From NCBI GenBank assembly GCA_002633005.1, contig NMRA01000534.1, positions 234,251-298,250 of the forward strand: 64,000 nt of DNA, read 5' to 3'. Numbering within the stretch: the first letter of the stretch is position 1; each line of letters opens with the position of its first letter. A model generated the notes under the pieces. It was not told the DNA's origin and did not search any database. It saw only the letters and a program-made list of their open reading frames with translations. The translations under genes and the position numbers were made by a program. Below, in pieces: positions 2,742 through 56,489 of the stretch. This DNA comes from Phoronis australis. Its lineage: Eukaryota; Animalia; Phoronida.

Positions 2742-3184
2742 NNNNNNNNNNNNNNNNNNNNNNNNNNNNNNNNNNNNNNNNNNNNNNNNNNNNNNNNNNN
2801 NNNNNNNNNNNNNNNNNNNNNNNNNNNNNNNNNNNNNNNNNNNNNNNNNNNNNNNNNNNNNNNNNNNNNNNNNNNNNNNNNNNNNNNNNNNNNNNNNNNN
2901 NNNNNNNNNNNNNNNNNNNNNNNNNNNNNNNNNNNNNNNNNNNNNNNNNNNNNNNNNNNNNNNNNNNNNNNNNNNNNNNNNNNNNNNNNNNNNNNNNNNN
3001 NNNNNNNNNNNNNNNNNNNNNNNNNNNNNNNNNNNNNNNNNNNNNNNNNNNNNNNNNNNNNNNNNNNNNNNNNNNNNNNNNNNNNNNNNNNNNNNNNNNN
3101 NNNNNNNNNNNNNNNNNNNNNNNNNNNNNNNNNNNNNNNNNNNNNNNNNNNNNNNNNNNNNNNNNNNNNNNNNNNNNNNNNNNN
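2742..3184. other. Assembly gap (N run)
   Basis: Run of N. Confidence 1.
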
Positions 3185-6765: not shown

Positions 6766-7667
6766 ACTCTATCGATGGAGTTAATAAGTCTATCGATTGA
6801 GTTAGTAAGTCTATCGATAGAGATAGTAAGTCTATCGATATAGTTAGTAAGTCTATCGATATAGTTAGTAAGTCTATCGATATAGTTAGTAAGTCTATCG
6901 ATAGTGTTAGTAAGTCTATCGATATAGTTAGTAAGTCTATCGATAGAGTTAGTAAGTCTATCGACAGAGTTAGTAAGTCTATCGATATAGTTAGTAAGTC
7001 TATCGATTGAGTTAGTAAGTCTTTCGATAGAGATAGTAAGTCTATCGATAGAGTTAGTAAGTCTAGCGATAGAGTTAGTAAGTCTATCGATATAGTTAGT
7101 AAGTCTATCGATAGAGTTAGTAAGTCTATCGACAGAGTTAGTAAGTCTATCGATATAGTTAGTAAGTCTATCGATTGAGTTAGTAAGTCTTTCGATAGAG
7201 ATAGTAAGTCTATCGATAGAGTTAGTAAGTCTAGCGATAGAGTTAGTAAGTCTATCGATATAGTTAGTAAGTCTATCGATAGAGTTAGTAAGTCTATCGA
7301 CAGAGTTAGTAAGTCTATCGATATAGTTAGTAAGTCTATCGATTGAGTTAGTAAGTCTTTCGATAGAGATAGTAAGTCTATCGATAGAGTTAGTAAGTCT
7401 AGCGATAGAGTTAGTAAGTCTATCGATATAGTTAGTAAGTCTATCGATAGAGTTAGTAAGTCTATCGACAGAGTTAGTAAGTCTATCGATATAGTTAGTA
7501 AGTCTATCGATTGAGTTAGTAAGTCTTTCGATAGAGATAGTAAGTCTATCGATAGAGTTAGTAAGTCTATCGACAGAGTTAGTAAGTCTATCGATATTGT
7601 TAGTAAGTCTATTGATTGAGTTAGTAAGTCTTTCGATAGAGATAGTAAGTCTATCGATAGAGTTAAC
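6766..7667. repeat. 21-bp minisatellite (GTTAGTAAGTCTATCGATAGA)n with 168-bp higher-order repeat
   Basis: About 43 units. Variant units recur every 8 monomers. Confidence 0.95.
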
Positions 7668-9768: not shown

Positions 9769-10465
9769 CAAGGTACCTAAACTACACGGTCAACGGACTC
9801 AAAAACACGGGAACGGACGCATGAACACGACTCACGGACCGGCAAACACCGTCCACTGACTCACAAACACGGGAACGGACTCACAAAACACGATCCACGC
9901 ACCCAAATACACGGGACACGGACTCATATTCACGAGGAAACACGGTTAACGGACCGCCAAACACGATCCACGCCGATAAAGCATGCCATAAACACGGGAC
10001 ACGGACTCATCGCCTTCCTAGGTCAGCCTCAAGATGGCGTTAATCTGCTTAGCGATCAGCGCTCTCTTGAGGCTTGCGGACGAGGATGTTACAAACAGGT
10101 TTGGAAAGTCAATAAATTTCAGAACGAATAATTAGTTTCAATAATGTTTATTGTTTCTAAATCACAACAATTACATCACAGTACAGACAAAAATAACATC
10201 AAAAATATATTTAATCTCGCACCCATTACACAGCTGTCAACGCTGAAGTTGACATTTTGTCCGTTGACCGTGTTTGGCGGTCCGTTAACCGTGTTTCCTC
10301 GTGAATATGAGTCCGTGTCCCGTGTATTTGGGTGCGTGGATCGTGTTTTGTGAGTCCGTTCCCGTGTTTGTGAGTCAGTGGACGGTGTTTGCCGGTCCGT
10401 GAGTCGTGTTCATGCGTCCGTTCCCGTGTTTTTGAGTCCGTTGACCGTGTAGTTTAGGTACCTTG
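9769..10465. mobile_element. Young MITE with ~195-bp TIRs (CAAGGTACC...GGTACCTTG) and 5-bp TSD TATTT
   Basis: Long, apparently perfect TIRs built of AAACACG subrepeats. TSD at 9764-9768 and 10466-10470. Near-identical inverted copy at 39991-40730. Confidence 0.95.
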
Positions 10466-10953
10466 TATTTATTAGCATGTTAATCATGACGTATTGGTGT
10501 AACCTTCTGCAGGGATCGTATCTCTAGACTTTCATAGAGAGACGCCATAAAATTCAGTTTTATCGCAACTGAACATTTAGCAATCATGCGTAAGTTAAAG
10601 TCGCAATAAATCAGGCTCTGGTGCAGAAACACATTTTTCTTCAATTCGTGTTTCGTCGTCTCAATTAAGCAACGACATCGCGTCCTTATTCTTTGTTTTG
10701 ATTGAAATTGCTGGTAACAAAACACCTGTAATTCCCGTGACGGTCACAGTGAGGTTGGCGGCTGAAACTAAGCGGCCGTGACAGACAATCGTAATGAAGT
10801 AATATCGATCTTCCAGATATTCTCAAGCCTATAAAAGGTTTCTAAGACGTATTTGGGGATAAAATGAGGGCGACTTCATATCATTAAGGGACCAAACGGA
10901 CCGCGCGGGTTTATTGCACCTTTAAAGAGCTGAAATACAACGGGAGAACTTTC

Positions 10954-14830: not shown

Positions 14831-15199
14831 TTTCATTTGTCCAAATCATTAGCCTTGTATGTGAATTAATTATTGTAGGCCTATTTGGTTATTGTATTGT
14901 ATTGGATTTGAGGGTAAACGGTAACATTGTAGTGTGACCTGCTCCACTAGTTTACTCTGCCTCTACTATTGTTGTTGTTCTCTTTTGATGTGCAACTTGG
15001 GAGGTGTGCACCTCTTATTATAAGTTCCCACTGCTGGAGTACGCGATACATTGGCTGCAACAGGTGAGTGACAGATGACTCATACATATGTCGCGCGTGC
15101 TGTCCCAGAAATGAGGGCTTGAGAATTTCTTGCCGACTTATGATTACTGCGATGCAAGACAAGTTGTGACCGTCGTTTGGCAAGTAACAGCCAAGGGTT

Positions 15200-16400
15200 G
15201 TCATCTTCACGTATGTTTTTGCGAACACACCAACGAACCGTTTATCAATGTCTTGGATGATGAGACATCGCCGGTTAAAGTGTTCACACAAATCGAACAG
15301 TTGAATTCCAACAAAGCTGCCGGCGTGGATGGTTTGTCACCTGGTATTCTCAAACGTTTTGATAAAGATTGGATAGTGTTTCGTAATGACTTTCTCAATA
15401 GCGTTTTCAGAGGCAATTAACCTGAATCATGGAAACACGTTTAAGTTTTTAATATCTACAAGAAACGAGATTGCCTCGATCCACGCAACTATGGAGGTAT
15501 AATTATCATGAACCATTTAGCCGAAGTGTATGTCTCTATTCTCGCGGAGCGTATACTGCTATGGCAGCGCTCTCATTAAGAGCAGGCAGGGGCACAAAAG
15601 GGACGTGGTTGCGAAGAGTACATCCTACATGTACAGTAGCTACTAGACTTCTTATCGACATTGCTAAAAAAACGAAAAAGCAATTGTACATTGCCGTCAT
15701 CGACTACGAGAAAGCATATGATAAAGTTGATAGGAACTCTGTTAAACATACTAGAACACAATGGATGCTGCTTTCGCTTTCTCAAAGCCCTGAAAAATCT
15801 CTCAGCCCATCCCTTTGCGAACTCGACACTTTACTACCAATATGGGCGTTAAACAAGGAGCCACTGTTCACATTCTTCATTGACACAACCGTTGAGGCTA
15901 TAGCCGCTACAGGAAATGATTCTTGGATAGAAAACTTACATTGCTTGACACAACTATTTTCGCCTCATCGAGAGAAAAACTACTACGTAAGCCGGAAGCT
16001 CAAAAAACCCATGCAGACGGAGTCTGTATGATTAAACACCTACAAAATCAACTGACAACACAACCGACACAACAACTTTTGGATTAAGCAAAGGTGTAGA
16101 AATCCAGCACAGCCACCAATATTGTTACCTGGGATCACTAATAGCTGTCAAATCAGTGCCAAGAATCCAAGTCCTCTTGCACGCCACATATAAAGAGAGT
16201 CAATTGCTCAAGTTCTCAGTCTTTTCGTTCAAAAATAGCGACGCCCCTGTCAGAGTCACGAAAACAGTTTGGAGCGCTTGAGTATCGTCAGCTCTTTTGT
16301 ACAGTTGCGAAACTTGGCTTTAGGAATCCAACCCTGAAATCGAAACGTTGTATAATGTCAGTTTGAAAAGGTTAGTCGGTGTCTAGAACTCTAGCCCTGG
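15200..16400 (+). pseudogene. Decayed non-LTR retrotransposon (LINE) reverse transcriptase
   Basis: Frameshifted motifs KAAGVDG, PESWK, DPRNY, EQAG.QKGRGC, IDYEKAYDKVDR, GVKQG and YLG in order. Confidence 0.85.
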
Positions 16401-21301: not shown

Positions 21302-22052
21302 AAAATAACGGAATGGTCTTCACGAGGTGTCTTACGTAAACATAATAGATTACAGTAAATATAAAATTATTATTTCCTGTACAGTAAAAATGAAAATGAC
21401 TATCTCCTGCACTCCTACCAATCACTTTACTGGTTGACATTTACAAAGATATTAGATTGCGGTTCCAAGCAAGTGTTCTGAGGAAAAACGAGTGTGCCTC
21501 TCGTGATATAGACCCTATTCACGCCGACAGGAGGCGCGTTCCAAAACGAGGCTCGCTACGGTAGCTCTGGTGGCTTATCCGCGTAGTTGTACTCCGCGTT
21601 GCTCGAACAGCTAGAGAAAATACGGACACTCAACTGTCTGTTTTAGGCAATCCATAAGGACGTTGGTATTCGGAAGCGTTGGGTCCTTGCCATACGCCGC
21701 GACGAAGGAAAATATGTCCGTGTAAAATTTATAACTCTTTTGGAATCATAATTTGTCGCATCTCGGATGCCGCCATAGCAACGAGGACCGGAGAATCGTC
21801 GGCCAGCCAGGCTGTGTTTTCATGACTATGGGTTGAAGCGCGATGCATTTTTCTTTTCAAAAAGGACAGGGCCCTCAATCCGTCAATTTTGGGGCCAAAT
21901 ATTGGCCCCATTCCCCTCTCAAAAATATTGAAAAATCACGCGAAATTCCCGGCCCCGCGAGGCCTAAAAGTTCCCTTAGTGATTGAAAATTTCTCTCCAA
22001 CGGTTCAAATCACCTGTGACCACAGAGGTGACAATTTGAAAAAGTACAAAAT

Positions 22053-22271
22053 CATAGGCGGATTTAGGGGGGGGGCACCCCCCTTGACTGCCGCAAGCAC
22101 AATAAACCAGCAAAACATGAAGCGGGAGGAAACTTGTANCGACAGATTTCCTGAGCAGGAGGTACACATCCTCGGCACCCGCAACTTCCGGGCCGCCTGC
22201 GTGCATACAATCGCGCTTTGCCCGCGTCTCCGAGGATGTCGCCCCCCCATGGTATCCTAGATCAGCCACTG
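22053..22271. mobile_element. MITE with perfect 5-bp TSD AAAAT
   Basis: CATAGGCGGAT...ATCAGCCACTG. The empty site is visible in the paralog (~42277 CAAAATGCTAC). Confidence 0.9.
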
Positions 22272-22462
22272 AAAATGCTACTTGAGACAGAGCTATGAGA
22301 GCTTGCAACAGGGCGGGTGCTATTGATGGTGATCGGGAGGTCAGTAGATTTTTCTCTGACCCGTCACTCGGCGAAACGCTTCCCTCTCAGAAGGCCGCAC
22401 ACGCACCTTTCCCCTCGGATATGAGCGAGACCTCTGAAGAAACATGATAACTATGCTTGTTC

Positions 22463-32742: not shown

Positions 32743-33660
32743 NNNNNNNNNNNNNNNNNNNNNNNNNNNNNNNNNNNNNNNNNNNNNNNNNNNNNNNNNN
32801 NNNNNNNNNNNNNNNNNNNNNNNNNNNNNNNNNNNNNNNNNNNNNNNNNNNNNNNNNNNNNNNNNNNNNNNNNNNNNNNNNNNNNNNNNNNNNNNNNNNN
32901 NNNNNNNNNNNNNNNNNNNNNNNNNNNNNNNNNNNNNNNNNNNNNNNNNNNNNNNNNNNNNNNNNNNNNNNNNNNNNNNNNNNNNNNNNNNNNNNNNNNN
33001 NNNNNNNNNNNNNNNNNNNNNNNNNNNNNNNNNNNNNNNNNNNNNNNNNNNNNNNNNNNNNNNNNNNNNNNNNNNNNNNNNNNNNNNNNNNNNNNNNNNN
33101 NNNNNNNNNNNNNNNNNNNNNNNNNNNNNNNNNNNNNNNNNNNNNNNNNNNNNNNNNNNNNNNNNNNNNNNNNNNNNNNNNNNNNNNNNNNNNNNNNNNN
33201 NNNNNNNNNNNNNNNNNNNNNNNNNNNNNNNNNNNNNNNNNNNNNNNNNNNNNNNNNNNNNNNNNNNNNNNNNNNNNNNNNNNNNNNNNNNNNNNNNNNN
33301 NNNNNNNNNNNNNNNNNNNNNNNNNNNNNNNNNNNNNNNNNNNNNNNNNNNNNNNNNNNNNNNNNNNNNNNNNNNNNNNNNNNNNNNNNNNNNNNNNNNN
33401 NNNNNNNNNNNNNNNNNNNNNNNNNNNNNNNNNNNNNNNNNNNNNNNNNNNNNNNNNNNNNNNNNNNNNNNNNNNNNNNNNNNNNNNNNNNNNNNNNNNN
33501 NNNNNNNNNNNNNNNNNNNNNNNNNNNNNNNNNNNNNNNNNNNNNNNNNNNNNNNNNNNNNNNNNNNNNNNNNNNNNNNNNNNNNNNNNNNNNNNNNNNN
33601 NNNNNNNNNNNNNNNNNNNNNNNNNNNNNNNNNNNNNNNNNNNNNNNNNNNNNNNNNNNN
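32743..33660. other. Assembly gap (N run)
   Basis: Run of N. Confidence 1.
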
Positions 33661-34635: not shown

Positions 34636-35422
34636 TATTATCTGGCGGCTGTTCTTGGAATTCGTTAAGTAACGCATAACGCCAGCACGCATTCTCCCCT
34701 TTTCCCGTTCATTAGCTGATACCCGTGATTTGCAACGAGTCATCATAGTTCTTAGAGGGCTTCACGACCACTTAGCTGGAAAGAGAGTCTGAGAAAGCCG
34801 GTTCAGCCACTGCGAAAATGTCTCTAAATGATGATCTGTTTTAATATGCTTTCTGAGGAAGACAATAATTGACCTGAGTCACATTTAACAAACTACAAGC
34901 AATTCCGTCACAACAATATCTATGGACAAGACAACTGATGAACAAGCCAGGACAGGATTGTCACGAAACATGAAAATAGAACAGATTTGGCGTGAGAAAA
35001 GTCACACAAGTTAACATGTGTAGGAGAAAATACAATATGCTGAAGCGGAACAATATTATATGCATTTCGCCCTGTTTAGATGGCTAAAAAAATGAAAATC
35101 AAGTTTGGCCTTTTGCTCTCATAAAATCGATAAGGTTCTATTTCCGTTACCAACAAGAACAATCAGCGACTCACAAAAACGAGTTTTTTTGGGATTGGTC
35201 AGGTCTAAAATTGCAAATTCGAAAATGGCGCATGTGCGCATTGCGGCCGGTGACTTTAATTGGTAACGGAAACTGACTCCTGTCTTTGTATCACTTCACG
35301 GTGGTCGTGGAGGCAAAATCCTTTCGCTCTACCATGCGACAGCGAAAATCTTTAGCAAGTTGACAAAATAATCTCCTTTCTGCTTCTCAGCTTATTCAAG
35401 CGTTACCACAACTAATTTGTAG

Positions 35423-35486
35423 GTGCTGCCTCTGCTCTGTTTCTCGCTATTTTTTGTTGCTGCTGTTGCAGTTACTGCTTCTTTCG
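35423..35486 (+). CDS. Candidate signal-peptide exon (VLPLLCFSLFFVAAVAVTASF-G, phase-1 end)
   Basis: Follows TTTGTAG (a second pyrimidine-rich CAG acceptor lies at 35389). Hydrophobic core ends in an AVTA small-residue motif. Weak donor G|GTCATT. No ATG found. Confidence 0.3.
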
Positions 35487-36719
35487 GTCATTGTATAATA
35501 TTTCATTGGCCTACAAATAGGGAAGACGTGGAACTGATTAGTGTCATCTAATTGTTTTTCCTAACTTACGACCTAAACGTGAAAATCAATAAAATAGAAT
35601 GTTCACATCCACAAACCTGTCCCGCAACCACAACACTTTGTTCAAGATAAGTCGAAAATTGACCTATCGCGTGGCACGCACCAAGTAAACAATATGACTG
35701 GCCAATTTTGAGTCTCCAGTAAAATTTGTTGGTCACGTGCCCAAGTCTCATAACAGTCGTTGCCACGATACCAGTTGATGTCTACCACCAGACAACACCA
35801 TTTGAGAGACCCCCTTAGCAGATAAAGCACACCAACTTTGGGACTGTCGGCATTCCGAGCTCTTGGAAGCCTCCTTCCTTGCTCGTGGGACGTAGCGACA
35901 TTTTCTATAACAAAAAACGTGAAGTTTTGAGACATGTATTGCGTGGTTGAGAAGCCCAGTTTAATTTGCATATTGGTTACAAAGTGTCCCTTTAATGTCA
36001 CAAATAAAAAATGAGAGCCCGTCATGTTTTTATTACGAGCAAATTGAAAATTCAAGAATACATAAATCTCAAAAGATAATTGTCCTTGCCAAAATACTGC
36101 TTCGTCCTTGGTTTTCTTTCGCGACACACCTCGGACAATCTCAGTGACGAATTCAAAGTGTGACTTTGACGCGTGCATGGATAAGTTCAATTACATGAGA
36201 AACATTGCGGACTGAGCACAGTCCATCAGCTCATGAAAACAATTACAAAGTGGAAATGGAACCCTTACGCACATCGGGTTGCAGATCACTTACACGTAGA
36301 CCTACCACGGAACGGAAGTTACGGTATGGGAGAATCCTTGCCACTCACCTGTGTGTAGTTGCGGTTCTGCTTTCCTGGTGAGAGTTTTTCATGTGTGCAT
36401 AGCGTTGTCTTAGTGCGTGCTAAGTATTTTGTGGTGGCCTTGGTGAGGATTCCATCCCGGCCGTGGCAAGGGTTCCCCTCCCGTGGCAAGGGTTCTGCTG
36501 CCACCGGTAAGGGTTCAATTGACACCTCTGAAATACCAACTGACTAAATCCAATTTATAAATGAAACGTCGGCCAATTTATCCAGCTCGTACACCTTAGT
36601 GTTATTGATAAAAATGACGTGATAATCCGGGCCGTTGCATATCATGAATCCGCTGCGGCAACCTGCGCAGGGAGTCGTAGGGGACTGTTAGTCGTTTTCA
36701 TGAATATATTTATAGATGT

Positions 36720-39818: not shown

Positions 39819-39990
39819 TGTATCCAAACAACTCCAAAACCATAAGCAAATAACAATCGTTTTTAATATTTCGAGCTAAGCAACACATATGTTGCTCAGC
39901 CATGTCATGTGACACATTATAGCACACACTAACATAACGATGGCTTGGCAATTTGATAATCTTTAACCAATATTTAACAATTCTCAATAA

Positions 39991-40730
39991 CAAGGTACCT
40001 AAACTACACGGTCAACGGACTCAAAAACACGGGAACGGACGCATGAACACGACTCACGGACCGGCAAACACCGTCCACTGACTCACAAACACGGGAACGG
40101 ACTCACAAAACACGATCCACGCACCCAAATACACGGGACACGGACTCATATTCACGAGGAAACACGGTTAACGGACCGCCAAACACGGTCAACGGACAAA
40201 ATGTCAACTTCAGCGTTGACAGCTGTGTAATGGGTGCGAGATTAAATATATTTTTGATGTTATTTTTGTCTGTACTGTGATGTAATTGTTGTGATTTAGA
40301 AACAATAAACATTATTGAAACTAATTATTCGTTCTGAAATTTATTGACTTTCCAAACCTGTTTGTAACATCAAATCTTAATTTTGACAGTGAGACTAGCG
40401 ACTTGGGAAGCATCCTCGTCCGCAAGCCTCAAGAGAGCGCTGATCGCTAAGCAGATTAACGCCATCTTGAGGCTGACCTAGGAAGGCGATGAGTCCGTGT
40501 CCCGTGTTTATGGCATGCTTTATCGGCGTGGATCGTGTTTGGCGGTCCGTTAACCGTGTTTCCTCGTGAATATGAGTCCGTGTCCCGTGTATTTGGGTGC
40601 GTGGATCGTGTTTTGTGAGTCCGTTCCCGTGTTTGTGAGTCAGTGGACGGTGTTTGCCGGTCCGTGAGTCGTGTTCATGCGTCCGTTCCCGTGTTTTTGA
40701 GTCCGTTGACCGTGTAGTTTAGGTACCTTG
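39991..40730. mobile_element. Young MITE (twin of 9769-10465) with 5-bp TSD AATAA
   Basis: Same TIRs. TSD at 39986-39990 and 40731-40735. 43 bp longer internally. Confidence 0.95.
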
Positions 40731-40859
40731 AATAACAGATTACCTTCATTGTCACTCTACCAAGCTCTCCCCTCACTGCAGCGTTTGAGACATGCTGTTC
40801 AAGTCCCAACAAAAATTTACAAGATTTATTTTGCACGATTTCAATGTCTTGTGCGGATT

Positions 40860-41300: not shown

Positions 41301-41731
41301 GTGAGTGTGACCTTTGCTGTGAGTTTAGATTTTGATTTCTTGGACATCACTGTTTGACGTTCAGTGCTTTCTCTCTATACTCTTAATGCTGACTAGAAAA
41401 TTTCTATCAAAAACAAAATCGACGCACATTTATTCAAAGTAAACACTGAATCATCAGGCTGTCATGGTCACTTCATGGTCCCAGTATCCATGCAGGAGGG
41501 TGGAATATTGTGTCAGCTCAAATCACAGTCCAGTATTCGAACCTGGATTCATCGGACCAGACACCTGCATAGTCCAGCGAACACTGTTCGAAACAACTGA
41601 GAGCTACAATAAAAGTAAACACTCAGTCTAAGAAAGAGAGTGCTGGCTTAGCGCGTCCAGCTCGGTAAATCAATCGTCATTTTTAGCAGAAAACTACTTT
41701 ACTTACCTGATTCATCATCACCAATCATCGA

Positions 41732-42460
41732 CATAGACCTAATTCACGCCGACAGGAGGCGCGTTCCAAAACGAGGCTTGATACGATAGCTCTGTTGGCT
41801 TATCGTCATAGTTGTATTCCGCGTTGCTTGACTGAACGGCTGAAAAAATACGGACTCTCAACTGTCTGTTTTACAATCCCTAAGGACGTTGAGATTCGGA
41901 AGCGTTGGGTCGTTGCCATACGCCGCGACGAAGGAAACTATGTCCGTGTAAATTTTTGTAAATATTTTTGAAAAGTTCAGACATATTTTAATTGTCGCAT
42001 TTCGGTTGGCGAGCATCATAGCAACGTACCAGAGAATCTTCGGCCAGCCAGGCTATGCTTTCATGACTACGGGTTGAAACATGATGCATTTTGCTTTCCA
42101 AAAAGATTAGGGCCCTCAATTCCTTGATTTTGGGGCCGGATATCGGCCTTATTCCTCTCTCGAAAAATTACGCGAAATTCCCCCCCACGAGGCCTAAAAA
42201 TTCCCCTAGTGATTGAAAATTTCTCTCAGGAGTTCAAATCACTTGTAACCACACAGGTGACAATTTGAAAGAGCACAAAATGCTACCTGAGACAGAGCCT
42301 ATGAGAGCTTGCAACAGGGCGGGGGTGATATTGATGGTGATTGGAAGGTAGATTTCCCCTCCCTCTCAGAAGACACAGACACCTTTCCCTCGGATGAGCG
42401 AGGCCTATGAAGAAATATGATAACTATGCTTGCTCTGTCCTGTTAACNTGAGCTATAGAC
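41732..42460 (+). mobile_element. THAP-remnant-bearing DNA transposon, copy 2 (no nested MITEs)
   Basis: Colinear with 21506-22630. Remnant PKDVEIRKRWVVAIRRDEG. Confidence 0.7.
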
Positions 42461-42614: not shown

Positions 42615-44108
42615 AATGCGTAAACGCACAATTTTCGAATTCGCATTTTTAGGTTGGCCAACCCTAATAAACCCTTAAGAGTTTTTTTAAGTCGCTGATC
42701 AACTCGATTTTCTTGTTGGGTACGGACATGAATATTATCACTGTAATCGGTATTATGGGACCGATTTCAAAAAGCCCGATTTTATTTTTGTTTTTTAGCC
42801 TGCTTCAAGCATTTTACACTTACGTGTCGTCCACATCCTTTGACTGTTCTCTTCGAAAGTAACTTTGTTATTCACAGGCAGAAATTATGTGGGGTCCTAC
42901 GAGGTCCACACAAACCGTAATTGTGAATGGGAACGTGATCGAGGGTACTATTGGCTATGCATGTACTGGCCTACTCCTGGTAAATGGAAACGTCACTGTT
43001 ATTGTGAAAGAAAGTTGGTTGCCAGTGAGCTCAATCACACCAACACAAGCTGCAAATGGCTGCGATACGCGCACACAGAGACGGAGTATTTCTGGTTTTT
43101 TCGGTGTCGTTGCGGTCGTCAATGAGAAGAAACGCGTGTATAAATGGGACTGAGCAAAATGGCACTGTCCACGATTTATATTGCAACGTTTTGATGTGTA
43201 TGCAAAAATTGAAGTGATGTGTGTACTTTTGTGGTAGGCCCCGCTGCATCATCGTACGTGCTAGTGATTCACGTAAAAACTATGAAAGAATTCTATTTCT
43301 TATTAACTTTCTTCGGTCTTTCAAATGCCATGACGAAAATTATTGTTTCTACGATTGTACACTGTACTATAATGTAATTAACGTAGACAAATTTTGCTGT
43401 TACTTAGTAAAAGCAGTAGGTTGTTCTCTATAACTGAATATAGCCACAGACTTGGCAAAACACCTAACGCATTTCAAAACTTAGACCAACCACGTCATGA
43501 CTGAAAATTTATCCTGCCTCCTGTTCATTACCTCTAGGACCTCACTAAAAAGCAAGACTTGGCGAGATAACACGAGATATTACTTTGCATTTTAAACCAG
43601 ACTAGATTTTAGCGTAGGTCGTAGAGTTACTGAACGCACTCCTACTACAACTGTTATGGTTTCATTGAGTGGTATGTAATTAAACGTAGCTGAAATGTCT
43701 CATAAATAATTGCTGTTATTACCGTAGTATAATGCTGTTCATTTTGAAATTTATTTGATATTCTTACGCTGAGGCAGACATGTTTTATAACGTAACTGAC
43801 GGTAAAAGGACAGCTGCTTCTATGCATAGAGGTGGTACGGATTACTTTGCTTTTCACTAAACAGTTCTACTTTTTGGAGTTTTGTGTGACACTGTACTAG
43901 ATCTTATACACCAATAAAACAGCTTTTAGAATTTTAACATATAAATACGCATTGTTTTAGTACACAATGTACACGTCAACGTACTGTAGTACGAAAGAGC
44001 GAATTTCCTCCCTTCATGCGACCTAAGAACGAAAATCATTAAGTAATCTGATTACCTCTTGCAAACTGGTCTCGACAAGTTCTTTGTCCAGCACATACCA
44101 CTGTTGAA
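42615..44108 (+). repeat. Segmental duplication unit A (intron end, coding exon and 3'UTR)
   Basis: Colinear with 51436-52782. AATAAA at 43913 is conserved in both copies. Confidence 0.9.
42878..43125 (+). CDS. Terminal exon encoding an unrecognised ~82-aa Cys/Trp/Tyr-rich peptide (copy A), probably secreted
   Basis: Acceptor TTTGTTATTCACAG| (phase 1). Open to TGA. 7 Cys. Only frame-preserving indels versus copy B. Confidence 0.75.
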
Positions 44109-44399
44109 ATGTCGGCGAGGCTCGTGCTAGCTGCTCACCAACTCGCCATTGGCAGGCTTTCAAGCGTTCCTACTTTTCTTACTTTTTGGCCTGTTCCTAC
44201 CTTTCCTACTTTTTCTGAAATTCCTAATATTTCCTACTTTTTCCTACTTTTTTCTCACTGCTTTAAAAATTTCATTCAAGTTATGTTTTTGGAGTAGTCA
44301 GTAGTTGTTTTAGGTAATCAGGAACACCATACGAAAGGACTTCCTCCAGCACAAGCGATGCTAACCTAAAGCACTGGTGGCCATGTGTACAAAAAACAA

Positions 44400-45375
44400 C
44401 AAACTGTATATTTAATTTCATTTAATAAAGTCTATGCCAATTGTACGACAATTCAATTCTATTTTGAGTATTCAATGCTATTACACCAATTCAATCCACA
44501 CTCCTGGATTCCATATCGTGAACTCAAAGCTGGTTTGTATATTCTATCCTGTTTTGTAAATTCAATGTTGTTTAATCGATTCTGTTTGTTCTATCCTATA
44601 GTGTTGTGAATTCAACCCCATTTCATAAATTCACTCCAGTTTCATTGATTCTGTTTCGTCAATCCTGGTGGCCTAATGACACGCCTAATATATGCATGTA
44701 TTCTTCAAGCTGTTGATGTCGACAACAAGACTATTTACTCCAGCAATAGAAACTTTAAGAACATGCCTTCAAGGAACGCAACAGTTCGATGAATAGGTTG
44801 GAGTATTTCCTTCGTACAATATTGGATACTCTAGGGCTAGAACATGTGGCTTTGCCCATATCGCGTGCAGCCAATCTTTTGAGAGATGAAAATGACATTA
44901 GTTATCATGTTCACAGTGATAATGGTGGCCTGAACGCCCAACCTCACGCAACGCACAGACAACCGGGAAACTCAAACGCGTGCGCACATATGACATATTT
45001 GTTTCGTCCATAGGCCGCTAGGATTGACGAAACAGAATCGACAGAACAGGATTGATATGTTACACAAAGGTATTGGTTTCGCCTGTAGGCCGCTAGGATT
45101 GACGAAACGCAGTAGATGGAATTGGATTGAAATCAGGAAACGGGATTAAATTCATTATAAAGAAATAGGATCGACTGACAAAACAAAAAATCATTAAACA
45201 GCACTGAATTCACAAAACAGGTTAGTATGTACAAAACAGCATTGACTTTGTAATAAGGAATCCATAAGTTTGAATTGAATTGATGTAATTGCATTGAATG
45301 CACAAGATAGGATTGAATTGTCTTACTATTGGTATTGGATTTATCAAATGGAATTGAATATACAATTTGATGGTT
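44400..45375. mobile_element. Foldback element with ~280-bp diverged inverted arms
   Basis: 44400-44680 matches the reverse complement of ~45085-45370. Confidence 0.75.
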
Positions 45376-47259
45376 TTTGCATAAATGACCAATCATACTA
45401 AAGACTATGTAGTTGGAGAAATAGTAGGACTTCACAATTTTGAGTGGAAGTGGTTTGAGATCGTAATTCTATTGTATTTCACCTAACATTGAAGGAAAGG
45501 GGCGTCTTAAAGTGTAATTTGCAAGGTCCAAGTATGTTAAATTGCAATAATATCTTCAAGGTATTGCTATTTGGATGTATTTTATTCCAATCATCGTATT
45601 ATTGTATCTTTAGTTATTTAAAAAAAGCGAAAATAAGAAAATGCGCGAAAAGTTGACCTTTGACACCGTGACATGGTGTTGGGGAACACAAACCAGATCA
45701 TATCCCACAATGCAGTTCACTGCTATTATATCACAGTACACGAAGAAGAAAGACCGTTCAATCCTATCGGCACCCACATACCATTAATCAAACTAGAAAA
45801 TGACAATGGGGCAAACCAACTTGAAAAGCAGTGTTGCCACTCAAAGGGTCGCCCATATTTTAAATATTACAGTATACATTAAAACTTCTTGATATGCTAT
45901 ATGGGCGATCACCAATCCAATGGTATGCTCTCTTTACTCTATAGAAACTTTACCAGGCGGTTCCTACCCAAGTCGACTCGTAATCAAGCCATGTACCATA
46001 TTTCATTTATAAATAATGGCAACATTGGGTTATTGTACATCGACATGAAATGGTTGTTTCCATTTCAAGCATCGCCTTACAACATAAAACTGTTTTGGAA
46101 CACATGTGTATATTGATATAGGTCCGAGTTGACTTGAGTACGAAAATGAAATGACTTGTTCTATAACCTATAAAACTATGCCCTCCCCCAGCACCAAGGT
46201 GAGAAAGTCTAAACTATAAAATTGCAATTCTTTCATCCTCTTCTTTACAATTCACAGTCGATTATTCCAAAGTGGTTCTCATTCATAATGCTCAATTGCA
46301 TGCCAGTGAACCCGAGTCTCACGAGCTCAAACCACTGAGCCACACTGTCTACAAACAATCAGAGACCTAACACTTTTCGAGTGATTTGCTATAATGCAAA
46401 AAAATCCCAGTTTTATCACTGAAACTGGTATTTATCCACGGCTGAAACACGATTCATCAATGGGGATATGGGCGCCTGGTACTGACTGGTAATAAGCACC
46501 TACTTTTGAATTAAAAAAGACCAAGTTATAATTCGCGGTTGTAGGATACATATTGATAATATTCTTACCAATCACTAACATCTAATCGCAACTCCTGCGC
46601 ACCTTCAGCCTGTTGACGTTCACAGGACGAACCCGCTGGGAGTGAGTCTTCGGCGACCAGAGAAAGGGCCGTGAAAGGTATCGAGGGAGAACGGCTCCAC
46701 TACAGAAAAGCTGTGAACACATATTGTTCCTCTGGGATCTGTCACCTCCACCTCCACGTCCGAAAGGTCGGAATCATCTGAAAAGTCCACCTGTCCGTCC
46801 CTGTATCGTTCAAAGTATTCCTTATCTACGTTGCTGTACTCACTTGGACACACATTGCTTCCTTTGTGTTCCCCAACACCACGTCACAGATGTGTAACGA
46901 ACGAAAATGGCGCCGTTTCTATTCTCCGTTACAACGATGGCGTTACAACGACACGGCACTAAATATGTAAATAACTTTGTATAGCGGCGTACAATTCAGT
47001 TAATGTTAAGAATATAGGAATGATAATTATAAACTAGAATTTAGACCATATTGTTGTTCAGATTGGTTTGGACCTTGCCATTTCCTCTTTAAGTTCGACA
47101 GTCCTGGGGTTTGGTCCATGGGTGGTCCAAAAGAGCACCCAAAATCCAAGATTAAGACCCAATTTTCCTGGAGTTTGTAGATAAGATGGTGGTGTTTGGA
47201 CCCCGAGAGACAATAAAACCCTGTTGAAGGAGGGGAACTTGTTATAGAAGGATCTGAAC

Positions 47260-48310
47260 AGAAAAGAGACTCAAGCTTCAAGAACCAACTCGAGAGGGAG
47301 TCGTTGAAAAGAGAGCTACCTGCCTTTCTCAATAAGGATTGGTCGACCAACTTCTACACTCCACTTCTGTATGGAAGGGAAGTATATTGGGGGTGATGGG
47401 AGAGTGCACTCGGTTCTTCGTTGACGATGGAGAAGAATGCACAGAATCCTTTCCATCCCTAAGTTGTAATCACTCGGAAGCCGACATCAGTGTAGTCATT
47501 CATATGATTGAGGCGGCAAGTCCACACCTGGCGACATCATCACAAGAGTTTCTGACACCGACATTTTAGTGTTGGTCCTACACTATCTCCATTGAGTTAC
47601 ATCCATTTTGTGGATGAAGCTTGGGACTAGAGGACAAGGCGATCTGCGTTATTTAAACATAACTAAGATTGCTACTGCGATAGGCCAAGCTATGTGTGTT
47701 GCACTCCTCCGTCTACACGTGTTCACTTGATGTGACTATCCTGTGTATTTGTAAGGAAAAGAAAAAACAGACCAAATGTAGTCGTGGCAAAACGTGATCA
47801 GTTTCAGAGAACATTTCCTTCACTGAGTCGCACTATACCAACAGAAGAAGTCATCAAAATCTTGCAGGACTCAACAAGCACCGGTTCAATGTGGTGGACA
47901 GAATCTACAAACGGAAGTCACCGCTAAGCACCCGTTTGAGAAGCTTAAAAGCATCCAGTGCAGCAGTATTCCACCGTGCGAAGCTGAACTAGGGCTTCAC
48001 ATGGATAGAAAAGCACTTACTGATAGACTATGGGGTTGTGCTCATCTCCAAATCTTGGACAAAACACCCACCAATGTATGGGAATATGTTGACAGCGAAT
48101 TTCACATCATTTGGTTCAGTGAACAGATGCTCCTCTGCCCTCATTCCAGAGGTTCAAGCCGAAACAAAGCCAGATGACAATAGTGGCGATGCTGGGAGAG
48201 ATGATGGTATGGACAGTGATGTAGACAAAGATCATGATCCTCTGCCAACAGAAATAAAATCACCTGGCGAAGAGAGTGACGACGATCACGACTTAGATGT
48301 TTGCAGTTAA
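47260..48310 (+). pseudogene. Decayed Academ transposase
   Basis: CNHSEAD, SDTDILVL, LWMKLGT...RYLNI, ALL.LHVFT.CDY and IPPCEAEL.LH motifs with frameshifts and stops. Confidence 0.8.
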
Positions 48311-48847
48311 GTTACAGCAGATTAAATAATTGTTATTGCGTTTTGAATGTGGGTTTTATCTTATGAAACAATAGACTGTGCCTTGCATCACAATCTCATG
48401 TCCTTTCATTTGTTGCCACTAGATATGGTTCAAGCAGTTTAGCTTTAATTTGTAGCCAGCTTATTTAGTTACCCCCAGATGTATCTTCATTTAGTTTTTG
48501 TTTCATTTTTGTTGTATTTGAGAGTAAATTGGTCATATCTTCAGATGTTTTTGTTTATTTGAAATAATATGTTTTATCCGTAGTAATCAAAATTGTCGTA
48601 TTTCCTGTTTGATACAAGTTCATTTTGGGAGTCTTGTGATCCCTTGTGGTCCAAACACCCCCATCTTATCTGCTAACCCCAGGAAAATCCAGTCTTAAGC
48701 TGCGGATGTGGTGTCCAGAGTTAGTAAACTATCTTTTAGAAAAAAATTGTTGCACTTAACTTTAAAGAAATCCTTTAATCAATAAGTGTCTTAATCAATA
48801 AGTGTCTTAATCAATAACACAATAATTTTTCATGTCATAAGTTGTAT

Positions 48848-50348
48848 TATTATGCGCCCACATATTTATATGTGGACTTATTATGTCGTCATCTCTGTCC
48901 TTTCGTCCGTCCGGGCGGCGTCCGGGCGGCGTCCGTCCGGCGTCCGCTGCTCTATCTCCAAAATCCTTTGACATATGTTTATGAAATTTGGCAAATTTGT
49001 TCCAATCATAAAAGGGACGGCATGAGCGAACTTTCAGACGGATTCAACTACCGGTGTGCCCCCTACTGGCAATTTTAATTTTTTACGCTTTCGACTACTG
49101 TGGCGCCTCCTAGTGGCAGTTTTGTTTTTTTTAGCGCCTATGACGGTATCTCCTAAACCGTTCGCAGGATCTTTACGAAATTTAGTAAGTATACTTATAT
49201 GATGTTAACAATGGACGACGACGACTTTTGGACGGATCTGACCACCGGTGTGCCCCCTAGTGGAAATTTTATTTTTTACGTTTACCTTTGTATCTTCAAA
49301 AGTCCTTAACGGATTTTCATGAAATTTAATATGTAGGCACCTATTAGTGAGATGACGCTATCCTCCCGTTTTCGGATGGATTCGACGTAGTTTGCGCCAC
49401 CTAGTGACCATTTTTACTGTTTTCGAGTCTGTTTTTTGCGTCCACCCCTCTATCAACCAAACCGCTCAAAGGATGATTGTGTAAATTAGCATGTATGTGC
49501 TTACTATAAAGAGGACGGTTGACGATGGTTTTCCGACGATTTCGACTACTGTGGCGCCTCCTAGTGGCAGTTTTGTTTTTGTTGCGCCTATGGCTGTATC
49601 TCTTAAACCGTTCGCAGGATCTTTACTTATTTTAGGAAGTGTATGTATATGATGTTGACTATGAATTACGAAGAATTATTGGACAGATCTGACTACTGCT
49701 CTGCCCCATAGTGGCAATTTTAGTTTATTACGTTTAACTCAGTATCTTCGAAGGTCCTCAACAGATTTTCATAAAATTTTAAATATAGGCATCTATTGGT
49801 GTGATGACGCTATCTTTCTGTTTTTGGATGGAATCGAGGTATTTTGCACCACCTAGTGGCCATTTTTGCTATTTTCAAATCTTGTTTTTGGTGTCCACCC
49901 CTGTATCAACCAAATCATTTGAAATTTGGCATATATGTCTCAGTGTGAAGACGACCTTTGATGATGGTGACTGACTACTGTGGCGCCTCCTAGTGGTAGT
50001 TTGTTTTGTGCCCATAGTTGTATCTCCTAAACCCACTGCAAGATATTTACTAAATTTAGTAAGTGTATTTATATGAAGATAACAACAGACGACCGTGACG
50101 ACGACTTTCAGGCGGATCCAACGGACACTGTGCCCACTGGTGGCAGTTTCATTTTATTCTGTTTTCCTTTGTTTCTCAGAAGTTCCTTGACACATTTTTA
50201 TGAAATTTGGCATGTTCCTGATTTTGGATGGATTGTATGTTTTTGCGCCATCTAGTGGCCATTTTTATGATACAAAGAAATAACCCTAGAAGCACACCAT
50301 TTGCAATGCATTCGTGGGCGCATTTCAACGCTCCGCGTTGCTCTTGTT
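48848..50348 (+). mobile_element. Helentron-associated non-autonomous element (HINE/DINE-1-like) with internal satellite
   Basis: SubTIR ATGCGCCCAC (48852) / GTGGGCGCAT (50314). (GTCC)n-like tract, ~147-bp tandem units, 3' hairpin CAACGC-TCC-GCGTTG and CTTGTT end. Confidence 0.85.
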
Positions 50349-51117
50349 ACATCATTTGAAACAATTTTTATCCATAGTAATAATAAAAAATGTCGTATTT
50401 CCTCTTTTATTAGTACAGGTTTGAGGACCTATCCTCTGGGGTCCAAACACCGCCATCTTGTCTACAAACCCCGGGAAAAATTACATCTTAAATTTTGGAT
50501 ATGGTGTCTAGAGTTACTAACCTGTTTTGGAAAAAAATGTGCACTTAGAAGTTTAAATATCTTTAATAGATCTTTATGATTAGTAAGCATCTTAATTAAT
50601 AACCCCAAGCATTTTCATGTGTTAAGTTGTACCATTTTAATTTAAGTGTTGATTTGAATGAAATAAACTTGAAACAGATGTTGCACTTGAAATTTTATTT
50701 AAATGGATTTTTGGGTCCTATTGTGAACCCCCCTAAGGGACCTAAGCCCATTATTGTGCAACTTAAAACGCTCCTTTCATTCAATGGTAGGTGATGTACA
50801 ATAGAATTACGCAGTCAAATCTTTTGCACTCAAAAGTGAAAGTGTGAATAAAATCCTGCTAGTTCTCCAACTGATGGTAATTGCAGCCTTTCACATGAGG
50901 TGAACGTCATTATTAAATATCGATGAAAACTACTGGATGCCTCCCTTTGTTCACACTTTTCAATTCACAGTTCCTACCTTTTCCTACTTTTTTGCCTAAA
51001 ACTGCTTGAAAGCCTGCTAGTTGAGACAACTCCTGGCATCTGTTCCAGCCACGGGCACTCGTACCTCCCCCTCCGGTTTGGCATCCGGAGTTAGGGTTAG
51101 GTATCCGTCTGATAGCA

Positions 51118-51255
51118 CATGGGCGGCGCTGAAAAAAGTTGGGGCTAAAGTCCCCTCAGCCCCCCTGTGGTGCACTGCCTATAGACCATGTGCGGTGTAG
51201 CACTGTAAAAAATGGGGGCTATAGCCCCCCAGCCCCCTATGGTGCTCCGCCCATG
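51118..51255. mobile_element. CATGGGCGG MITE with 5-bp TSD
   Basis: TIR CATGGGCGG.GC, flanked by TAGCA/CAGCA. Confidence 0.7.
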
Positions 51256-51435
51256 CAGCACTTGTAAGTAGTCCTGCACATTTTTCAATTCCTTCCCCTC
51301 ATTCGTGTGTCCCCAATTTAAAGGTTCATTTCACCGTTGTGAAAGCAGTGAATGCTGAATTCTTAACGAAATAGCTTTTGCCGGGGTTTAAAAACATTAT
51401 CACACTCATCCCTTGCCGCTCTTGAATTATTGCCG

Positions 51436-52782
51436 AATGTGTAAACGCATAATTTTCAAATTTGCATTTTTGGGTTGGCCAACCCAGATAAACCTGAAGA
51501 GTTTTTTTGAGTCGCTGATCATTTCAGTTTTCTTGTTGATTACGGACATGAATACCATCACTGTAATCAGTAATATGAGACCGATTTCAAAAAGCCCGAT
51601 TTAATTTTTGTTTTTAGCTAGCTTTAAGCATTTTACACTTACGTGTCCACATACTTTGATCATTCTCTTCGAAAATAACTTTGTTATTCACAGGCAGCGA
51701 TTACGTGGGGTCCTACGACGTCCACACAAACAGTAATTGTGGATGGAAATGCGTGTATGAACCCGGATACTATTGGCTAATATGCTACTGGTCTGGTAAA
51801 TGGGAACACCGTTGTTATTGTGAAAGACGCACTCCTTTGAGAGTGAGCTTTCACACCGACGCACGCTGCAAATGCCTGCGATACAAGCACGGAGAGACGG
51901 AGTATTTCTCGTTTTTACGATGCCATTGTAATTGAGAAGAAACGCACAGATTGTGTATACGTGGGATTGAGCAAAAGTGTGGTGTGCACGGTTTTTATTG
52001 CACCGTCTAGTTGTGTATGCAAATTATAATGAAGTGATGTAGGTACTTTTGTGGTAGGCCCCGCTGCATCAACGTACGTGCTAGTGATTCAAGACTACAA
52101 AAACTATGAATGAATTCTATTTCTTGAAGTGTTAACTTTCTTCCGGCTTTCAAATGCTATCGCGAAAATTGTTGTTTCCACGATTGTGCAGTGTACTACG
52201 ATGTAATTAACGTAGACAAATTTTGCTGTTATTTAGTAAAAGCAGTTGGTTGCTGTCCAGTTTTACTAATGTGGCCATAGACTTTGCAAAACACCTAACG
52301 CATTTCAAAACTTAGACCAACCACGTCACGATTGAAAATTTATCCTGGTGTAAAGACTGTCCTACAATTGTTATTTTAGTAGGGCGAGACATCATGGCTT
52401 CAATTTATACGCTATCGCTCAACGAGACAAGATAGTTTCATTGAGTGGTTTCGCAGCTGAATTGTTTCATAAACGATTGATGTTATTACCGTAGTATAAT
52501 GCTGTTCATTTTGAAATTTATTTGTTATTCTTACGCTGTCGCAGACATGTTTAATAATATAACTGATGGTAAAAGGACAGCTACTGCAGAATGGCAAGTG
52601 TTCCTTTGCTTTTCACCTAACCATTCTACGTTTCGGAGTTTTGTTTGACAGTGTACTAGATCTTATGCACCAATAAAACAGTAAACACCAATGGGAAATT
52701 GCACGAATATCCTTAAATAATCAGATTACCTCTCACAAACTAGTCTCGACAAGTTCTTTGTCCAGCTCATGCCACTGTTGAA
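51436..52782 (+). repeat. Segmental duplication unit B
   Basis: Colinear with 42615-44108. AATAAA at 52672. Confidence 0.9.
51694..51935 (+). CDS. Terminal exon encoding an unrecognised ~80-aa Cys/Trp/Tyr-rich peptide (copy B)
   Basis: Identical acceptor TTTGTTATTCACAG| (phase 1). Open to TGA. 9 Cys. Paralog of 42878-43125. Confidence 0.75.
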
Positions 52783-53191
52783 TAGCTGCTTAGTTCTGGA
52801 AGGGTTGACCAAATTTGTCGAAATTGGTGAAATTTTAACACAACTACAACTATTTTGACGACATCTCAGACATCGCTTGTGATTTGTTTGGAGAGTAGAA
52901 CTCATTTCCCATATAGAGAAACGGAAAGGCTACAGGGCTACAAGATTGTGAATGAGCTAAGATGCGTTTTTAGATCGGTGAAAAAATTCTTCTTCAATAT
53001 ATCAATGTTCTGGGAATTCAATCTGTTTAGCCTTCTAGTGCCCCTGATACGAGCCCGAGCTGAAAAAGTGGACCTATCAAGGAAAAATGTGCCAGAGACA
53101 TGGACATAAAATGAGAACTGATATGTGCGGTTGCGTAGTTTACGGTATCAGTGGTTTTGTTGAAATTCCTTTCCCTAGATACAAATCAACT

Positions 53192-53500
53192 TGGTGGCAA
53201 CGGTGGGATCTTAAAATGGCTAAAATAAAGCCACCGAAACTCGATCTAACAATCAGTGACTACAAAGCAGAGGCCGTTGAGCTGTGGCTAGGACTTTTCA
53301 ATGACTTTTGTACTTTGCAAGACTGGCGAGATCTCTCAAAAGAGGGTTATGAACAGTGGAAACCGGCAAACTATGCGGCCGAAATTAGTGCCTTCCGCCT
53401 AGCCCTCCCTATCGAGGTCCTCAAAACTATGAAAAGTACCATTGCCCCAACGATGACAACCTCTGCGCCCACGACGGGCAAAAATGACACCTACATTGGG
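53192..53500 (+). mobile_element. LTR retrotransposon (Gypsy-like) primer-binding site and truncated gag N-terminus
   Basis: TGGTGGCAACGGTGGGAT (53192-53209) is complementary to a tRNA-Leu 3' end with 1 mismatch. ATG at 53216 gives MAKIKPPKLDL...WLGLFNDFCTL, which is gag-like. Confidence 0.75.
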
Positions 53501-54399
53501 CACAGGCGTCCTCAGCTTCTGATCGTCCCCAATACACTACATATAATACTACAAGGTATGACACTCCCGACTAGAAATTCCACGGGTGCTTCACTTCAGC
53601 CGTCCATAGCAAATATAAAACTCATTAATTTTACACAAAACAGAGGTTCAACAAACCATGAAGAATTGTTCTTTCTCCCAATATCATTCACGGTGTCCTG
53701 TTTCGGCGACTTCGTAAGAAATTCGCAGTCAAAGAACAAAAATGTTCACAAAAAGCCCCCACACACCTTCATCGTGGGCCGCTCGAGGTCAAGGACGGTA
53801 CGGAAATTGCCGGTGTGTCGCGTAAAGTCACGGGGGCCGCGAAGTCGGGTTCCTCTTCCCGTCAGGGCAAAGGTTGTACAGTAACTATGATTTGAATAAT
53901 GTATTTGTATTTCTAAATAAAAATCCTCCTAACTTATGTGACAATAGCATATAAAATCGAGTAATTGTTTCACAACAGCTTTCTGTCAGCAAACACTGAA
54001 TTAGCATGCGCTCACACGGCCTCGGTGCCCGGTCAATTACCTTTGTTGTCGACATCAAAAGCTGGCAACGCAGTGCTTTATTCATTGCTGGTTTCTCAAT
54101 ACATTTGCACTCACGAGCACTTTAAGGCATCACGAATTGTATCTAATGAGACAGACTTTGTTTCAGTTTCATATAATCTGGTTAGGATCATTTTAGGATG
54201 AGAATAATTCATTTTGAAACAGAACGCAGAATAATAAACGTTTACATTGCAACTCGCCCGGCGACAATCCCGAATTAGTCAAGAACCCATCCGACGAAGG
54301 CTTCACAGATAGATCGTTAGGTTTCACAGGCTATCAGTTCGAACCGGAATACACTGATCAAGCAATACTAGAGAGGCGCCGTGAACATGCACAGGCAAC

Positions 54400-54663: not shown

Positions 54664-56489
54664 TCACACTGCAGACGAACCACTGACGTCGCTGCGTCGC
54701 TTCTCACCTTCCTCCCAGGTTAACGCGACACCTCTAGGCAAGGTGAGGTCGACCGTATAAGAGGCGATGTGAATATAGACCGATTAAGACAGTAAAAAAG
54801 ACTAATTAAATCGGGTGGCATTCTCCTTTAACTACGCAAAGCCTTGCCATTGTTTCACACTACGACTCTGTTGAATTTGAGGGAACCCCAGCTAGCGTTG
54901 ATTTTTCTGTGTTTCCGAAAGTATTGTAGGACGATGGGACTGCATGCTCATTGGGTGGGCGGGGAGGGATGGCAGGGGGAGTTCCTAACTATGTATCAAG
55001 TACGATCATGATCATAATAAGGACGACTCGACTGACTGCTGACGCGACAAAGGGGAGAGGGCGACCACAATGATCTCAACATCTTCGTTGTCATCCATAA
55101 TCTAATTTTACAGGTGGGATTTACGAAGCTCACACGAACCAGTCCTGTGAGTGGAAGCGAGAAGGGGGCTCTACTTGGAAACGATACTGTTATTGCGGCA
55201 AACATCCTGACGGATTTAGCGAAACACACGAGTCCAACACCTGCCAGTGGATCAGAGGAAGCGATATCCAAGGCAACGTGGATCCAACCTTGAATTATTA
55301 CTTTTGCAGATGTGTCTGCTGTCTCCACTAAACCACCAAAAGTTCCAGGGACGGACCACAGCTGTATTCTTTCAAGGCGAATTTCTGGCGTTTTAGTTTT
55401 TTCCTTTCATTTGTCTTTGGACTAGTCTCTGTGGTAAATGTCGGTTATTAGGAAAACTGCAAATTACGCCTGCGGTCCTAACAAACAAAAAACAACAAAC
55501 GTAGTAGCGATTCTTGAAAAAACGCAATTCACAAATTTGTTGTTATGGTTAAATAATTGCGAGATTTGTCAATTCGCTTTATTAATCATTTTAGGGAGCG
55601 TTCAAACATTACGTCATCACTGAAGGGGGAAGAGTTTGGGAATGATGACAACTGTTTCTTTTATTAAAGAAAACTTGTAACCTAACGCGCAAGTACATAC
55701 ATATAGGATGTGATCCGCCACGTGAACAGTCTGGGTGAATGACTTTCTAAAACCGCTCTGAGGAGGTGGCGTGTTACAACTATTATTAAAATCTTTTGGC
55801 CTATTTGTACCGACCTCTTGTAAATAGACAAGAGGTCGGTGTAAATAAACCAAGAGGTTTTAACAATAGTTGTAGTGTGGGTGAAGTATTTAAAACAACC
55901 GCAGAAAAAATGAAAGAAACTTAGGAATTCGAAGCGTAAGGGATATTCGGTCTCGGTCGGTACGCTAAATGTCTCGTGGGATATTACTTCAACTACGCCA
56001 CTCTTGGTATGTTTTGTTTTTTTATTGCATTGCTGAATACAACAGTGGCAAATGCAATTTACGATGAGAGAAAGACATTAGTCAGACATAAGAATCATAT
56101 AGACGGAATTTGCAACGAACTGTCGGTTCTTCCAAAAATAGGGAGTTGGCTATGGTGACGTAATTAGAGGCTAGACGGGAATGTTTATATCTTGTTGACG
56201 GGTGATGACAAAAGGGGGGAGGGGGTAAAAAGTGGCAAATTTTGGATGACGAAATATGTGAACGCTCCCTCACTGGCTGACATTCTCAAGTCACTTTTTA
56301 TAATCTTAACCACTCTAATGATAACTGTGTAGCTCCATTTTAGGAATCGGTTGTATTTGCTTGGTTTTGGCACTGAATGAATTGGTTTTATTTCCTGATC
56401 ACACGTGATTAAACTATGGATCGAATGAAGTTCATTGATTGACCCTGAGGGACAATTCACCGCCGCTAACTTAATCTATATCACTATTA

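Follow-up and report, generated by a model that had tools for sequence, protein, structure and literature searches.

In a 64,000-nt stretch of DNA from the phoronid Phoronis australis (NCBI GenBank assembly GCA_002633005.1, contig NMRA01000534.1, positions 234,251 to 298,250 of the forward strand), the available evidence supports the presence of three plus-strand coding exons of a Cys- and Trp-rich protein family that matches nothing recognized. These exons, termed A, B, and C, are homologs arranged in tandem, and each appears to begin at a phase-1 splice acceptor, a phase that is supported by RNA in C and predicted from sequence in A and B. All coordinates below refer to the full 64,000-nt stretch, which we call the window. 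The exons constitute a real and expressed orphan locus whose interest lies more in its probably exchangeable protein tails and a new module than in toxin-like evolution. Our tentative explanation, held at somewhat under even odds, is that they are alternative last exons of a single gene, with shared 5' exons that reside beyond the assembled window, and that each supplies an exchangeable binding-tip domain.

A sequence-only reading of positions 42615-52782 had described two colinear blocks with the same acceptor, frames of about 80 codons closed by a TGA in the same place, and a conserved AATAAA some 750-800 nt downstream, and its account of this layout was accurate. Block A (42615-44108) is colinear with block B (51436-52782), and BLASTN aligns the two at 81.7% identity including gaps over 933 columns. 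The acceptor ttattcacag/GC is common to both and opens the coding part of exon A (42878-43125, plus strand, 81 codons) and that of exon B (51694-51935, plus strand, 79 codons). Each of these frames contains two H-x4-C...C-x-C modules, ends in TGA in register with the other, and lacks an in-frame ATG near its start. The AATAAA lies 788 nt beyond the stop in A (at 43913) and 737 nt beyond it in B (at 52672). Previous estimates of about 55% protein identity and about 85% flank identity were likewise close to the measured values, which are 55.7% over 79 amino acids and 833 of 956 ungapped columns (87%), the latter excluding a 163-nt part of the 3' untranslated region (UTR) that aligns badly (55 of 106 columns). 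The statement that all three coding indels are 6 nt long stands in part, since the MAFFT alignment of the exons has three 6-nt gaps, but the most divergent stretch realigns better when a hidden, compensated pair of +2/-2 indels is used. The duplicated unit comprises the end of an intron, the exon, the UTR, and the poly(A) site, and nothing more. Its shared intron end (42615-42877 in A, plus strand) begins with about 125 nt of a dispersed repeat that is also found near 11320 and at 35130-35240, and its far end, past the poly(A) signal, is a segment at 44029-44108 (not assigned to a strand) that matches 52703-52782 at 88.8% over 80 nt.

The duplication described earlier is real, but an older third copy had been overlooked. 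A tblastn search recovered exon C at 55114-55331 (plus strand), a paralog of 71 codons with two modules, a TAA stop, an AATAAA at 55844, and 32.9% identity to A (E 5e-10). Similarity between its flanks and those of A and B is no longer detectable. Scanning 2803 six-frame segments of the window with a hidden Markov model (HMM) returned A, B, and C only, with the remainder at noise, and the two paralog searches together thus added one copy. The blocks do not represent a high-copy transposon, which was the outcome that the sequence-only reading had named as damaging to its proposal. There are only three copies in the window, none matches Pfam, and the exons attract almost no reads where true repeats in the same stretch attract hundreds to thousands.

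The repeat unit within these exons is a module of about 35 amino acids, two per exon, that follows the pattern H-[TE]-x3-C-x-W, then a variable loop, then R-x0-1-C-x-C. Its His and three Cys residues are unchanged in six of six modules, and the spacing C-x-C-x10-H-x4-C is fixed in all three exons. Judged from these alignments, the His/Cys frame appears fixed and the loops variable. When module 1 was scored against module 2 of the same exon, A surpassed 1000 of 1000 shuffles and C surpassed 999 of 1000. Three of the nine cross pairs of modules were not significant, two of them involving the second module of B. The core positions of A and B (H10, C15, C40, C42, H53, C58, C76, and C78) are numbered identically because a two-codon insertion is offset by a two-codon deletion. 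Cys residues beyond this core have been gained pairwise in B and C, save for one extra Cys that is common to A and B.

Constraint acts on both the reading frame and the His/Cys core. Between A and C there are 25, 28, and 40 differences at codon positions 1, 2, and 3, and 10 of the 26 residues that are identical between these two exons use different codons. In a neutral simulation of A and B with 30-68 substitutions, the frame stayed open with a probability of 0.05-0.17, and the probability that it stayed open with all eight core residues kept was 0.0003-0.018. A second plus-strand frame over exon A (42863-43153, 96 codons) was rejected, given that it is interrupted by three stops in B and that third-position divergence favors the Cys frame.

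Evidence for transcription comes from four sequencing runs that carry the same species label. X1-X3 are raw-read runs, about a fifth of each of which was read, and X4 consists of contigs whose RNA status is a guess. Exon C is transcribed, as is the UTR of B. One X4 contig covers 55113-55347 at a depth of 22 with one mismatch, begins at the acceptor of C, and runs on into 24 further bases that are free of stops in the frame of C and encode PLSANFNY. The unique DNA next to C has zero X4 depth, as expected for RNA. Up to 4 reads from X1 and 2 from X3 fall on C, and none from X2; they have a single orientation, which fits plus-strand RNA by the usual library convention. Four coding sites in these reads do not match the window; two of the changes are silent and two replace loop residues. 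Another X4 contig (52088-52686, depth 41.8) corresponds to the 3' UTR of B (51936-52686, plus strand) and stops 9 nt past the AATAAA, and exon B itself has a partial X4 depth of 6.75 in the bin 51555-52089. By homology to this transcribed UTR, that of A is predicted to occupy 43126-43930 of the plus strand. A and B are presumably spliced.

The architecture of the locus is suggested by what C is joined to. In the single contig that spans its acceptor, C is joined to sequence that is absent from the window: the 24 junction bases were not found there with up to three mismatches, and a matching donor is absent too. It is therefore likely that the upstream intron of C spans both A and B and, if the assembly is right, reaches the N gap at 33 kb or extends past the start of the window. 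The 2.3 kb separating B from C does not contain an upstream exon for C, and neither does any other part of the assembled 55 kb upstream. Furthermore, no plus-strand sequence except known repeats is common to the interval from A to B, that from B to C, and the 42.6 kb preceding A, in contrast to the 87% identity of the A and B flanks. The eight codons preceding C would thus be all that is known of an upstream exon common to A, B, and C. Depending on which of the acceptors of A, B, and C is used, one N-terminus would then receive a different C-terminal domain. That domain would consist of two modules of about 35 amino acids and would serve most likely as an exchangeable binding tip, because the His/Cys frame is fixed while the loops vary.

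The sequence-only reading had instead presumed a duplicated gene family. The exons are indeed related and duplicated, but alternative last exons of one gene are likelier than duplicated genes because the upstream exon of C is absent and the upstream sequences of A and B are not shared. It is possible, although doubtful, that A, B, and C belong to separate paralogous genes, each encoding a small secreted Cys-rich peptide, and that their 5' exons lie in assembly gaps or beyond the window or have been lost in this haplotype. Such genes would account for the separate stop and poly(A) signal of each copy, and N gaps do exist in the window, but the failure to find an upstream exon for C, or one co-duplicated with A and B, argues against them. 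A far less probable explanation is that the 24 bases are a trans-spliced leader, so that every exon is its own transcript. Flatworm trans-spliced leaders end in ATG. The 24 bases together with the next base also end in ATG, and their absence from the window would be expected of a leader. This ATG, however, would set another frame, which has three stops in B. The frame marked by codon-position conservation is the Cys frame, in which no Met occurs early. Nor were the 24 bases found in the literature searched, and the window has no Rfam match.

Several observations weigh against the model of alternative last exons. Two N gaps (2742-3184 and 32743-33660), or misassembly of the interval from B to C, could conceal 5' exons. 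The junction of C is known from a single contig of a single run whose RNA status is guessed. Exon A has no X4 coverage in the bin 42995-43529 and a depth of 0-0.5 in X1-X3. RNA mapping had been proposed as a check on splicing into 42878 and 51694; it revealed the acceptor of C and the UTR of B, but no joint into A or B occurs among the 15 of 250 joints listed. Finally, a hydrophobicity scan of the window for a signal exon gave 33 indistinguishable matches. One of these, a signal-like stretch at 35423-35545 with an acceptor-like site and a hydrophobic frame, was dropped as a candidate, being one of 33 similar matches and lacking the junction sequence of C.

The proposal of a toxin- or defense-peptide-like family under diversifying selection depended on the exon diverging faster than its surroundings. 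The raw contrast is genuine, with 57 of 236 positions differing between exons A and B compared with 123 of 956 in the flanks (ratio 1.9, Fisher p 4e-5). Diversifying selection as originally claimed, in contrast, is not supported. The nonsynonymous rate (dN) is 0.33 and the synonymous rate (dS) is 0.23, which gives a dN/dS of 1.41 (p 0.36) that falls to 1.01 without gap-adjacent and hypervariable codons. Seventeen of the 57 exon differences fall in 24 nt (43012-43035), where B carries a quasi-palindromic hairpin over its hypervariable linker (51819-51855, plus strand), identified by folding energy and realignment. This hairpin is the strongest among 827 windows from both blocks (-10.7 kcal/mol, z -5.9) and is likely the product of template switching with a compensated +2/-2 shift. 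Template switching at inverted repeats generates clusters of this type, and its effect resembles that of positive selection (PMC8604942). At this locus, the process would rewrite several codons at once while preserving the frame and the Cys spacing.

CpG sites make up 19% of exon columns and 9% of flank columns. When these sites and the 24-nt segment are removed, the exon (20/168, 0.119) and the flanks (99/872, 0.114) diverge equally (p 0.79). The contrast is also weaker when the poorly aligned part of the UTR is included (p 0.006 overall, 0.22 for non-CpG sites). CpG sites, together with a single complex event, thus account for the excess divergence of the exon. Three considerations speak against dismissing selection altogether: the most divergent segment was removed post hoc; when it is retained, non-CpG exon sites remain more divergent than the well-aligned flanks (p 0.011); and a degree of positive selection could underlie loops that evolve at the neutral rate next to a frozen core. 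The comparison rests on a single close pair, A and B, which cannot settle the question.

These rates also bear on the two rival explanations that concern A and B. The direction of the raw exon/flank ratio is that of conotoxin mature exons, which average 2.9 (10.1101/107672), and would favor separate genes for secreted peptides; the attribution of the excess to CpG sites and a single complex event speaks against them. Alternatively, C alone might be functional, and A and B would be neutrally evolving fragments of a duplicated exon within the intron of C. This is improbable. Outside one segment, dN, dS, and the flank rate are the same, and the four runs contain next to no RNA from A, as this explanation predicts. 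However, the frames of A and B are open and their exon indels are exclusively frame-keeping, whereas most of the 11 flank indels have lengths not divisible by 3. Moreover, all eight core residues are kept, for which the simulated chance is at most 0.018, and B has a transcribed UTR that terminates at its poly(A) signal.

The sequence-only reading recognized no known family, and Pfam, PDB, protein HMM, and structure searches have likewise failed to reveal a relative. No Pfam family reached the cut-off with the three exons and six modules, and only matches below it were seen (e.g., Tox-HNH-HHH, E 0.15 and 0.063). Word-index protein searches with A and with C returned nothing, and an alignment of the three exons compared with longer proteins gave 59 candidates, none at E ≤0.1. 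An HMM search of 1.84 billion representatives had one match, P0001, which was rejected as a 772-amino-acid tandem repeat that aligns to profile positions 2-19 only and owes its rank to a summed repeat score. Among PDB sequences the best E value was 0.76, and the module profile matched none. The ESM Atlas held no usable match for A or C, a result that shows neither absence nor novelty. None of 224 pattern matches in metagenome contigs was confirmed, nor was any of three in viral contigs. The motif was not found in the accessible parts of the literature on alternative last exons (Cys-rich or toxin) and on duplicated terminal exons.

Structure prediction had also been proposed. AlphaFold2 produced weak beta-hairpin models, but with predicted local distance difference test (pLDDT) scores of just 48 for an exon and 63 for a single module, and no fold relative was found. 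Comparison of these two models using Foldseek and VIA-align yielded nothing above noise (best Z 2.1 and 2.5). From sequence features, an extracellular three-disulfide domain for defense or recognition seems somewhat more likely than a zinc-binding domain, because of the phase-1 intron, the aromatic richness, the six core Cys residues, and the mostly paired additional Cys residues. Signal-peptide cleavage sites show an enrichment of phase-1 introns (PMC1626468). Zinc binding via H, C, C, and C would be nearly as good an interpretation because the His is invariant and A and B have odd numbers of Cys residues. The case for an extracellular domain is weakened by the Cys totals themselves (7 in A and 9 in B), by a His that gives each module exactly four possible metal ligands, and by the poor models. 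We infer the secretion, the disulfides, and the function of A, B, and C, and nothing at the locus demonstrates toxicity.

A related explanation retains the alternative-last-exon layout and makes the modules intracellular zinc sites, in tails like those of mod(mdg4) that bind nucleic acid or protein. We consider this unlikely. H-x4-C and C-x-C are invariant in all six modules and C-x-C-x10-H-x4-C in all three exons, the Cys counts of A and B are odd, and mod(mdg4) couples a POZ exon to exchangeable FLYWCH exons (PMC1702500). On the other hand, a Pfam zinc-finger match is absent at E up to 1 or 5, and the additional Cys residues of B and C are paired. A FLYWCH or WRKY-GCM1 finger was rejected because, besides the lack of a Pfam match, the order is H-x4-C and then C-x-C rather than two N-terminal Cys residues followed by HxH or HxC (C..C..HxH/HxC; PMC1702500).

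The layout that we favor for A, B, and C, alternative last exons, is of a known kind, whereas the domain is unrecognized in every library searched. Clusters of 3' tandem cassettes have been described for Drosophila PGRP-LC, CG42235, and pipe, and the PGRP-LC cassettes yield distinct immune recognition specificities (PMC6191721). Like A, B, and C, these clusters have duplicated terminal coding cassettes with their own 3' ends, and in the known ones a single cassette at a time is joined to the common 5' exons. The phoronid cassette differs in being one exon with an unrecognized domain and about 45%-65% residue difference between copies, and its common exon is known solely from the 24 bases joined to C. 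In lola, too, a constant N-terminus is joined to exchangeable terminal exons, which encode variable zinc fingers. The exchangeable terminal exons of mod(mdg4), which follow a constant N-terminus, resemble A, B, and C in their conserved Cys, His, and Trp residues (PMC1702500). Unlike both of these systems, the phoronid exons have no FLYWCH or zinc-finger match, place His first (H-x4-C...C-x-C), and carry two modules each. There are three copies rather than dozens, and there is no sign of trans-splicing from the opposite strand.

Conotoxin mature exons resemble A and B in outdiverging the adjacent noncoding DNA around a fixed Cys frame, but the ratio of 1.9 for A and B compares with their average of 2.9 (10.1101/107672) and becomes about 1 after correction for CpG sites and the complex event. 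A, B, and C also differ from conotoxins in their two-module repeat, their invariant His, the lack of any signal or pro region seen in the window, and the absence of sequence similarity. No toxin or antimicrobial peptide family was matched in Pfam, with the three exons and six modules, or among PDB sequences. The cystine-knot growth-factor fold shares with the exons a six-Cys order of C...CxC...C...CxC and a variable linker that lies between two hairpins, which in the exons are predicted. In those growth factors the first motif is longer (CxGxC), and a ring built from CxC and CxC is probably too small to thread. The exons also have no sequence or fold match to them, as judged with the weak models described above.

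The remainder of the window is repeat-rich, with a GC content of about 40%, N gaps, and signals of the spliceosomal type, features that fit an invertebrate animal. It contains 85 stop-to-stop open reading frames (ORFs) of at least 85 amino acids, of which 41 were scanned against Pfam after N-gap, satellite, and some repeat ORFs were excluded. None of these 41 longer ORFs reached the cut-off, and the surroundings of A, B, and C therefore look like intron or intergenic DNA packed with mobile-element remnants. A satellite at 6768-7665 comprises 42.8 copies of a partly self-complementary 21-nt unit, which results in two minus-strand open frames of about 370 codons. Two near-identical copies resembling a miniature inverted-repeat transposable element, in opposite orientation and with 204-nt terminal inverted repeats, occupy 9767-10466 and 39990-40732 and differ by about 43 nt in their interior. 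Two copies of another element, 74%-82% identical, lie at 21505-22462 and 41730-42435, one of them ending immediately upstream of block A; the element has a weak THAP-domain match under the cut-off (E 0.004). A decayed frame at 15115-16031 has no Pfam match but contains a stretch that resembles a reverse-transcriptase motif of a long interspersed nuclear element. At 48900-50350, a repeat with internal units of about 450 nt is covered roughly 1000-fold by strongly one-stranded RNA reads in each of the three raw-read runs; most of these reads are 90%-95% alike and hence derive from other copies. Between B and C, a 278-codon open frame (53048-53884) in repeat-covered DNA has no Pfam match and is probably a mobile-element fragment.

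A more speculative proposal, which we consider doubtful, is that a constant N-terminus spliced to duplicated last exons forms a secreted or surface recognition repertoire, in which an undescribed H-x4-C...C-x-C hairpin module would diversify its loops partly by hairpin-driven template switching. The signature of an exon evolving faster than its intron, which can nominate a toxin, is here mostly CpG mutation together with one multinucleotide event. Gene predictors miss such loci, which fits the absence of this family from the protein collections searched. If our explanation for A, B, and C is true, P. australis would possess an undescribed small protein module, along with isoform diversity that arises from duplicated last exons carrying an orphan domain.

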